Below, piece after piece: positions 63,359 to 64,000 of a stretch of DNA of 64,000 bases (position 1 is its first letter; each line of letters opens with the position of its first letter). The position numbers and the translations under genes are program-made. The stretch is from Escherichia coli (GTDB taxonomy: Bacteria; Pseudomonadota; Gammaproteobacteria; Enterobacterales; Enterobacteriaceae): NCBI RefSeq assembly GCF_003334315.1, contig NZ_QOWR01000016.1; one strand, 5' to 3'. The notes beneath the pieces were generated by a model. That model saw nothing but the letters and a program-made list of their open reading frames with translations, was not told where the DNA came from and ran no database searches.

Positions 63359-63547
63359 TTAGTCAGGGATTTGTTCTTTTTGATCGCCAGGGACGTCCTG
63401 AATGAAAACATTCACGCCACGTTGTTTAATAAAACGTAAGTCCGTGAGATCCTGGTCATCGACATAAACTTTACTGCTGATTTGCTTTTTCCCTTCCGAG
63501 AAATGCATATTGCCGACGTTGACATCTTTCAGGTCAATACCACCTTC
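63359..63547 (-). pseudogene. agaB: 3' fragment of PTS galactosamine EIIB gene (C-terminal 62 codons) truncated at IS1 junction
   Basis: Reverse-strand translation EGGIDLKDVNVGNMHFSEGKKQISSKVYVDDQDLTDLRFIKQRGVNVFIQDVPGDQKEQIPD-stop directly upstream of agaC, with no start codon; reading frame runs straight into the IS1 terminal inverted repeat. Confidence 0.8.
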
Positions 63548-64000
63548 GGTAATGACTCCAACTTATTGATAGTGTTTTATGTTCAGATAATGCCCGATGA
63601 CTTTGTCATGCAGCTCCACCGATTTTGAGAACGACAGCGACTTCCGTCCCAGCCGTGCCAGGTGCTGCCTCAGATTCAGGTTATGCCGCTCAATTCGCTG
63701 CGTATATCGCTTGCTGATTACGTGCAGCTTTCCCTTCAGGCGGGATTCATACAGCGGCCAGCCATCCGTCATCCATATCACCACGTCAAAGGGTGACAGC
63801 AGGCTCATAAGACGCCCCAGCGTCGCCATAGTGCGTTCACCGAATACGTGCGCAACAACCGTCTTCCGGAGACTGTCATACGCGTAAAACAGCCAGCGCT
63901 GGCGCGATTTAGCCCCGACATAGCCCCACTGTTCGTCCATTTCCGCGCAGACGATGACGTCACTGCCCGGCTGTATGCGCGAGGTTACCGACTGCGGCCT
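63548..64000 (-). mobile_element. IS1: IS1 insertion sequence, partial (about 453 of 768 bp; continues beyond window end)
   Basis: Starts with the IS1 terminal inverted repeat GGTAATGACTCCAACTTATTGATAGTG and contains the insB reading frame on the minus strand; I recognise the sequence as canonical IS1 over its whole visible length. Confidence 0.95.
63563..64000 (-). CDS. insB: IS1 transposase InsB (part of InsAB' frameshift fusion), 5' part outside window
   Basis: Track ORF 63563..63940 [48 protein letters not shown]...NIKHYQ; frame stays open to the window end. Confidence 0.93.

Follow-up and report, generated by a model that had tools for sequence, protein, structure and literature searches.

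Partial losses of the pathway for galactosamine (Gam) and N-acetylgalactosamine have been described in Escherichia coli. K-12 carries a 2.3-kb agaW'-agaA' deletion, and EDL933, in which agaC is truncated and agaI is split, is Gam- through a defect in the agaBCD transporter (PMC3668189; PMC9628945). The agaBCD genes serve the uptake of galactosamine, agaI is dispensable, and the operon runs from Ps, located upstream of agaS (PMC3668189). The locus considered here, an agaB gene interrupted by IS1, is comparable with both, as all three are natural, lineage-specific partial losses of the same pathway. However, the mechanism here appears to be the insertion of an IS element, compared with deletion or point mutation in K-12 and EDL933, and only the galactosamine branch is affected, whereas the K-12 deletion removes N-acetylgalactosamine PTS genes. 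The locus also recalls cases in which one short target has been reused independently by one type of IS, such as the IS1 hot spot in pBR322, which is the IHF case. A further case is that of E. coli B, with IS186 at the lon promoter (cited in PMC3446290). The literature searched on IS1 together with agaB or galactosamine held no account of the present allele or of a hot spot.

The window, i.e. the whole stretch of 64,000 nt that was analyzed, belongs to the draft contig QOWR01000016.1 (81,243 bp; GCA_003334315.1), and its position 64000 is the last base of that contig; yraQ lies at 67110-68150 in the contig and at 49867-50907 in the window. BLAST to full IS1 copies identified 63548..64000 (minus strand) as a partial IS1A-type element, corresponding to IS1 nt 316-768. 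The right terminal inverted repeat, GGTAATGACTCCAACTTATTGAT on the plus strand, is matched exactly at 63548..63570 and has the ~23-bp length of the IS1 family; the right end reads GGTAATGACTCC... from 63548, and a 54-nt IS1-end pattern was found once in the window, with 0 occurrences expected by chance. The ORF list also contains the C-terminal part of the insB reading frame (63563..64000, minus strand), whose 145 aa score 138 bits with NF033558 (IS1 family transposase; cut-off 100) over profile positions 82-199 of 199, which identifies it as IS1 transposase. The transposase and agaB are read in one and the same direction. Of the 768 bp of IS1, only the terminal 453 are inside the window, and full copies at the same site measure 768 or 769 bp (PSS-04, L013); insA, past the contig end for the window, is carried by the IS1 copies of loci L013 and L014 (PF03811 and PF12759 matches). 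In the initial annotation, the terminal inverted repeat was placed at about 63548, the element was said to run on to the window edge, and about 315 bp were thought to be absent, all of which agrees with an exact start at 63548 and with IS1 nt 316 at the edge. The truncation at 64000 is an assembly break and not biology, because the draft contig breaks at the repeat. Compared with known IS1 (IS1A/IS1B of E. coli and Shigella), the element shows no difference in kind and is partial in the window through the contig end: its right inverted repeat is identical, 453/453 nt match the IS1A copies of strains 63-2 and JP538 (0 mismatches), its transposase fragment lies above the NCBIfam equivalog cut-off, and the 9-bp duplication typical of IS1 is found in related genomes.

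Next to the right end of the element, a 3' remnant of agaB (63359..63547, minus strand) translates to EGGIDLKDVNVGNMHF...KEQIPD*, i.e. 62 codons and a stop. These correspond, with complete identity, to residues 97-158 of the intact 158-aa AgaB of L012, the locus of strain 2017.04.03CC, whose complete genome differs from the window at 10 of ~63,500 positions. AgaB is a IIB of the mannose/sorbose type (PF03830). With the NCBIfam profile NF007288 (PTS galactosamine transporter subunit IIB; cut-off 180 bits), the remnant scores 94.8 bits over positions 94-153 of 153, compared with 281.6 bits for the intact L012 AgaB. It thus has neither the length of a full AgaB (~158 aa) nor a score above the cut-off, and by these two measures it is a gene fragment and not a functional member of the family. 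A second profile, NF008508 (AgaV type, N-acetylgalactosamine IIB), gives 57.2 bits, and judged by the two scores the remnant is a galactosamine IIB (AgaB) and not an N-acetylgalactosamine IIB (AgaV), an assignment that also fits its place directly upstream of agaC-agaD-agaI, as in annotated references. The remnant has no start codon, the first in-frame ATG opens an ORF of 49 aa only, and AgaB residues 1-96 are missing on this side of IS1. Translation and ORF list therefore bear out the earlier description of an EIIB gene disrupted by IS1, with the last 62 codons kept without a start codon and the first ~96 of normally ~158 displaced or lost; the interruption lies at codon 97. For annotation, the truncated agaB should not be read as a novel small gene; it would be one of the two pieces of a pseudogene split by IS1, located where a draft contig stops. 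The insB stop TAA (63563-63565) precedes the agaB remnant by five codons and shares its reading frame; read-through of this stop codon would yield an InsB-AgaB' fusion, probably without consequence.

A simple IS1 insertion with a 9-bp target-site duplication is the most likely structure of the locus, with a probability of about 0.8. An IS1A-type element would have transposed into agaB between nt 288 and 298, duplicating GAAGGTGGT and splitting the gene into two pieces. The 5' piece would consist of codons 1-99 followed by 8 IS1-encoded codons (AgaB1-99 + GDAANLLI), and the 3' piece, codons 97-158 without promoter and without start codon, would be what the window shows. In the window, the 9-bp target GAAGGTGGT (agaB nt 289-297; 63539..63547, minus strand) adjoins the IS1 right end; in related genomes the duplication has this sequence as its right-hand copy, and the left-hand copy is present in L014, L056, L057 and L059. 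Both junctions are held by GCA_004172665.1, on separate contigs: agaB nt 1-297 are joined to the IS1 left end in SAHT01000014.1 (L056), and the IS1 right end is joined to agaB nt 289-477 in SAHT01000006.1 (L009), the 9-bp duplication being read across the two contigs. On the 5.1-Mb contig of L013, which has another background, agaB nt 1-297, an IS1 of 769 bp and agaB nt 289-477 follow one another. There, GAAGGTGGT flanks both sides of the complete IS1, as it does in PSS-04, where the element has the opposite orientation. The 5' part of agaB beyond IS1 and the duplication of 8-9 bp, named in the initial annotation as the marks of a simple insertion, were thus both found in related genomes (L013, PSS-04 and GCA_004172665.1), the duplication being of 9 bp. 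In the assembly collection, 39 index blocks contain the fusion protein predicted for a 9-bp duplication, AgaB 1-99 + GDAANLLI. An 8-bp duplication was rejected, as its predicted fusion protein is absent from that collection.

Closer relatives carry the same arrangement. The window-type agaB haplotype occurs with the 5' junction in four assemblies (GCA_002462895.1, GCA_004172665.1, GCA_004172725.1 and GCA_002466665.1). The upstream flank of L014 shows 3 differences from the window-like reference in 10,297 positions, and its IS1 is identical to that of the window over the 125/125 positions in which they overlap. The 3' junction recurs, identical, on three independent draft contigs, of which L009 has 100% identity to the window over 10,308 bp, L011 has 2 differences and L010 has 11. 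Because both junctions and the 9-bp duplication occur in sister or related genomes, we conclude from these comparisons that the lineage of the window carries a simple IS1 insertion with a 9-bp duplication. Strict 30+30-nt junction queries found the exact window junction in 0/5,426 complete RefSeq E. coli genomes, and the GTDB representative genomes contained no match when scanned with exact 40-mers. Two-piece "joined" matches in complete genomes were rejected as the junction, as they were due to other IS1 copies nearby.

The clone of the window itself comprises GCA_003334315.1, GCA_002190225.1, GCA_012773515.1, GCA_012531215.1 and three SRA runs, with SRR1122540 and SRR3951468 among its read sets. 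Its contigs match the window without a difference for up to 21 kb (100% identity), and in 4/4 of its draft assemblies the sequence is interrupted at the IS1 boundary or inside it, at window positions ~63541, ~63564 and 64000. As the source is a short-read draft contig ending inside a repeat, it could be imagined that the contig end was misjoined to an IS1 read and that agaB is really intact. This is hardly credible, however, since at least three further independent assemblies have an identical junction, the four clone assemblies all break here, and the complementary junction exists. A simple insertion predicts the 5' junction ...GTAGAAGGTGGT joined to GGTGATGCTGCC in the clone, and hence GTAGAAGGTGGTGGTGATGCTGCC in clone sequence; that the 5' half of agaB still adjoins IS1 there is what we infer from the sister genomes. 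The assemblies and runs of the clone were identified by the rare variants UbiU Q221L (45525-46520), YraQ P321Q (49867-50907) and DacB D115E (17609-19042), each of which is on only 4-7 public contigs, making them useful clone markers.

IS1 events mapped at or near agaB in complete genomes include both simple insertions and deletion endpoints. Simple insertions were located at agaB nt -181 to -173 in strain 300081, at nt 166-174 in the FDAARGOS_497 group, at nt 289-297 in opposite orientation in PSS-04 and PSJ-32-1, at nt 292-300 in 1296KP, and at nt 617-625, within agaC, in ET490. PSS-04 and PSJ-32-1 share element, operon and 9-bp target with the window, and PSS-04 differs in orientation; 1296KP differs by a target 3 bp away and the FDAARGOS_497 group by its position, i.e. 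by the IS1 variant and/or the site, and in ET490 the same element lies in the same operon but interrupts agaC. The deletion endpoints are at agaB nt 184, joined ~11.3 kb upstream near garP, in 63-2 and 7 relatives (L027), at nt 156 and nt -23, both joined to yhaV, in MB50 (L028) and JP538 (L029), respectively, and at nt 297, joined to yraI, in FCI56 (L025). These IS1-linked deletions of 4-11 kb span agaR-kbaY, some also including yhaV, prlF and garD, and in FCI56 they span agaB-yraI. They are of the kind that the initial annotation had set against a simple insertion, and they occur in other strains.

Such events raise the question of whether, in the window's clone, IS1 first inserted at nt 289-297 and then mediated an adjacent deletion or inversion, so that its left end now abuts unrelated DNA. 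Through an attack of the IS1 left end on a site further upstream or at another place, the 5' part of agaB and neighboring aga genes would have been lost or displaced. IS1 is a deletion endpoint in 4 of the ~ten events at the locus in complete genomes (63-2, MB50, JP538 and FCI56): in the 63-2 group, MB50 and JP538 the right IS1 end is still on agaB and the left end is joined far upstream, and the FCI56 deletion starts at the very same target (nt 297) and runs downstream into yraI. Moreover, the site has been hit independently many times, and an identical junction alone is therefore no proof of descent shared with the sister genomes. The four clone assemblies were also not among the matches listed for the 5' fusion protein in 24 of the 39 index blocks, an absence of little weight because the look-up covered only part of the index. 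Against a deletion, the simple insertion is present in sister genomes with identical flank and junction, and each deletion allele elsewhere has its own junction position, none of them at nt 289. Altogether, a secondary rearrangement is considered unlikely, and the simple insertion is preferred.

A simple insertion has direct implications for the function of the operon. Downstream of IS1, agaC (galactosamine PTS IIC, 62517..63320, an ORF of 267 aa), agaD (galactosamine PTS IID, 61736..62527, annotation transferred from L012) and agaI (60980..61735, 251 aa, the last gene of the operon), all on the minus strand, are intact and 100% identical to the annotated genes of reference L012. AgaB is the only galactosamine-specific EIIB. 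Because the C-terminal 59 residues would be missing from the 5' product and the 3' remnant is without a start codon, no functional EIIB would be made, and galactosamine uptake is expected to be lost (Gam-). Upstream, agaR, kbaZ, agaVWEF, agaA, agaS and kbaY are all intact in the 10.3 kb of sister L014. As agaVWEF, agaA, agaS and kbaYZ lie upstream of the insertion, use of N-acetylgalactosamine should be retained. The strain is thus predicted not to grow on galactosamine but probably still to grow on N-acetylgalactosamine. The earlier proposal that the N-acetylgalactosamine/galactosamine PTS operon is inactivated is therefore supported for the galactosamine genes agaBCD, but not for the N-acetylgalactosamine genes.

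IS1 is classically polar in both orientations. In the proposed arrangement it would sit between the agaS promoter and agaC-agaD-agaI, and because of this polarity the expression of agaC and agaD should be lowered. It had also been suggested that IS1 provides an outward promoter for agaC-agaD-agaI, which would mean altered regulation, through an outward or hybrid promoter or through read-through, rather than plain inactivation. The transposase is read in the direction of agaC, its insB stop is in frame with the remnant, and Prentki et al. are said to have reported in 1986 that hybrid promoters can arise from IS1 insertions. However, the promoter scan gave no sequence support, with no sigma-70-like site on the minus strand in 63000-64000, and the best manual candidate (TTGGAG, a spacing of 16-17 nt, then TATTGA or ATTGAC) has a poor -10 element. 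Even with agaC and agaD expressed, an EIIB would be missing, as the remnant is without a start codon and without the N-terminal 96 residues, which carry the phosphorylated histidine in the AgaB family. Together with the polarity of IS1, these points make IS1-driven expression a very improbable account, and loss of galactosamine uptake through the split agaB remains the expected outcome.

The insertion had initially been regarded as a strain-specific feature, a view that the comparison with other genomes does not uphold: the junction is common to several draft genomes of the lineage, and seven agaB haplotypes with the sense 5' junction carry IS1 in the target GAAGGTGG(T/C) at agaB nt 289-297. 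The 7 haplotypes differ at synonymous nt 51, 54, 90, 97, 99, 159, 162 and 234 and at nt 297, within the duplicated 9-mer, and their 10-kb upstream flanks show 66-296 changes from each other. PSS-04 and FCI56 have IS1 at the same 9 bp in opposite orientation, 16 contigs carry the antisense fusion protein, and in 1296KP another IS1 variant lies 3 bp away. With at least 7 haplotypes and both orientations, the insertion extends beyond a single strain, and genomes that share a junction have not necessarily inherited it from a common ancestor. From these junctions, agaB nt 289-297 is recognizable as a natural IS1 hot spot. In the metagenome scaffold L004, a gap of 10 N lies exactly at agaB nt 289 (locus position ~9962) and is probably an IS1 copy that collapsed in scaffolding.

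The remnant of L013 (GCA_974496785.1) has Ala for Thr in ...DLADL..., and this variant and several contig-edge AgaB fragments (proteins P0017, P0018 and P0026-P0028) are labeled Shigella flexneri. The same IS1 site is probably occupied in S. flexneri lineages. L013 is also without the yraHIJK fimbrial operon between agaI and rsmI.

The cause of the reuse of this target was sought in its sequence. The site is ~60% A+T, and GAAGGTGGTATTGAC is a stretch of the wild-type agaB target. A pseudo IS1 end was considered a weak candidate and rejected: GGTATTGAC overlaps the site and has 8/9 matches to the right end, but 18 such sequences occur in 24.5 kb (~1 per 1.4 kb). In ompL (L062 of AR_0019; six complete genomes), IS1 is flanked by the duplication GAAGGTTGG followed by TAT, compared with GAAGGTGGT followed by ATT in agaB. 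This likeness is suggestive but within chance, because thousands of IS1 junctions were searched. A second apparent target match was rejected, as it consisted of two tandem IS1 copies separated by GAAGGT. Such a pair, with the copies 6 bp apart (GAAGGT), is seen beside fimI in 2018-11-3CC (L063), where the flanking sequences are not those expected if one IS1 had simply inserted beside the other. No convincing cause of target reuse was found, neither a consensus target nor an IHF site being established for agaB nt 289-297.

IS1 is not the only route by which this transporter is affected. Other agaB lesions include a nonsense mutation at codon 95 (TTG95TAG), a 2-bp deletion of nt 148-149 and a stop at codon 128 (186 contigs). 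As agaB is also inactivated by such nonsense, frameshift and stop alleles, the whole AgaBCD transporter appears, from the alleles compared, to be lost often. A broader proposal would be that agaB nt 289-297 is a sequence-directed IS1 hot spot that has received many independent hits in E. coli, and probably in S. flexneri, mostly in one orientation, and that, together with the other agaB and agaC lesions, these hits may reflect selection for loss of AgaBCD and not mere decay. This is put forward tentatively, as its chances seem somewhat below even. The locus may therefore serve as a natural example of a 9-bp target reused by IS1, of IS1-seeded deletions of 4-11 kb, and of a dispensable sugar uptake lost by different routes. 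IS1 behaves here as known, and the current understanding of IS1 and of the aga pathway is unchanged; the feature is real but ordinary, the reuse of a single 9-bp target being the only mildly unusual point. Internal stops are also seen in agaB of ET490, in agaC of JP538 and in agaA of 2017.04.03CC.
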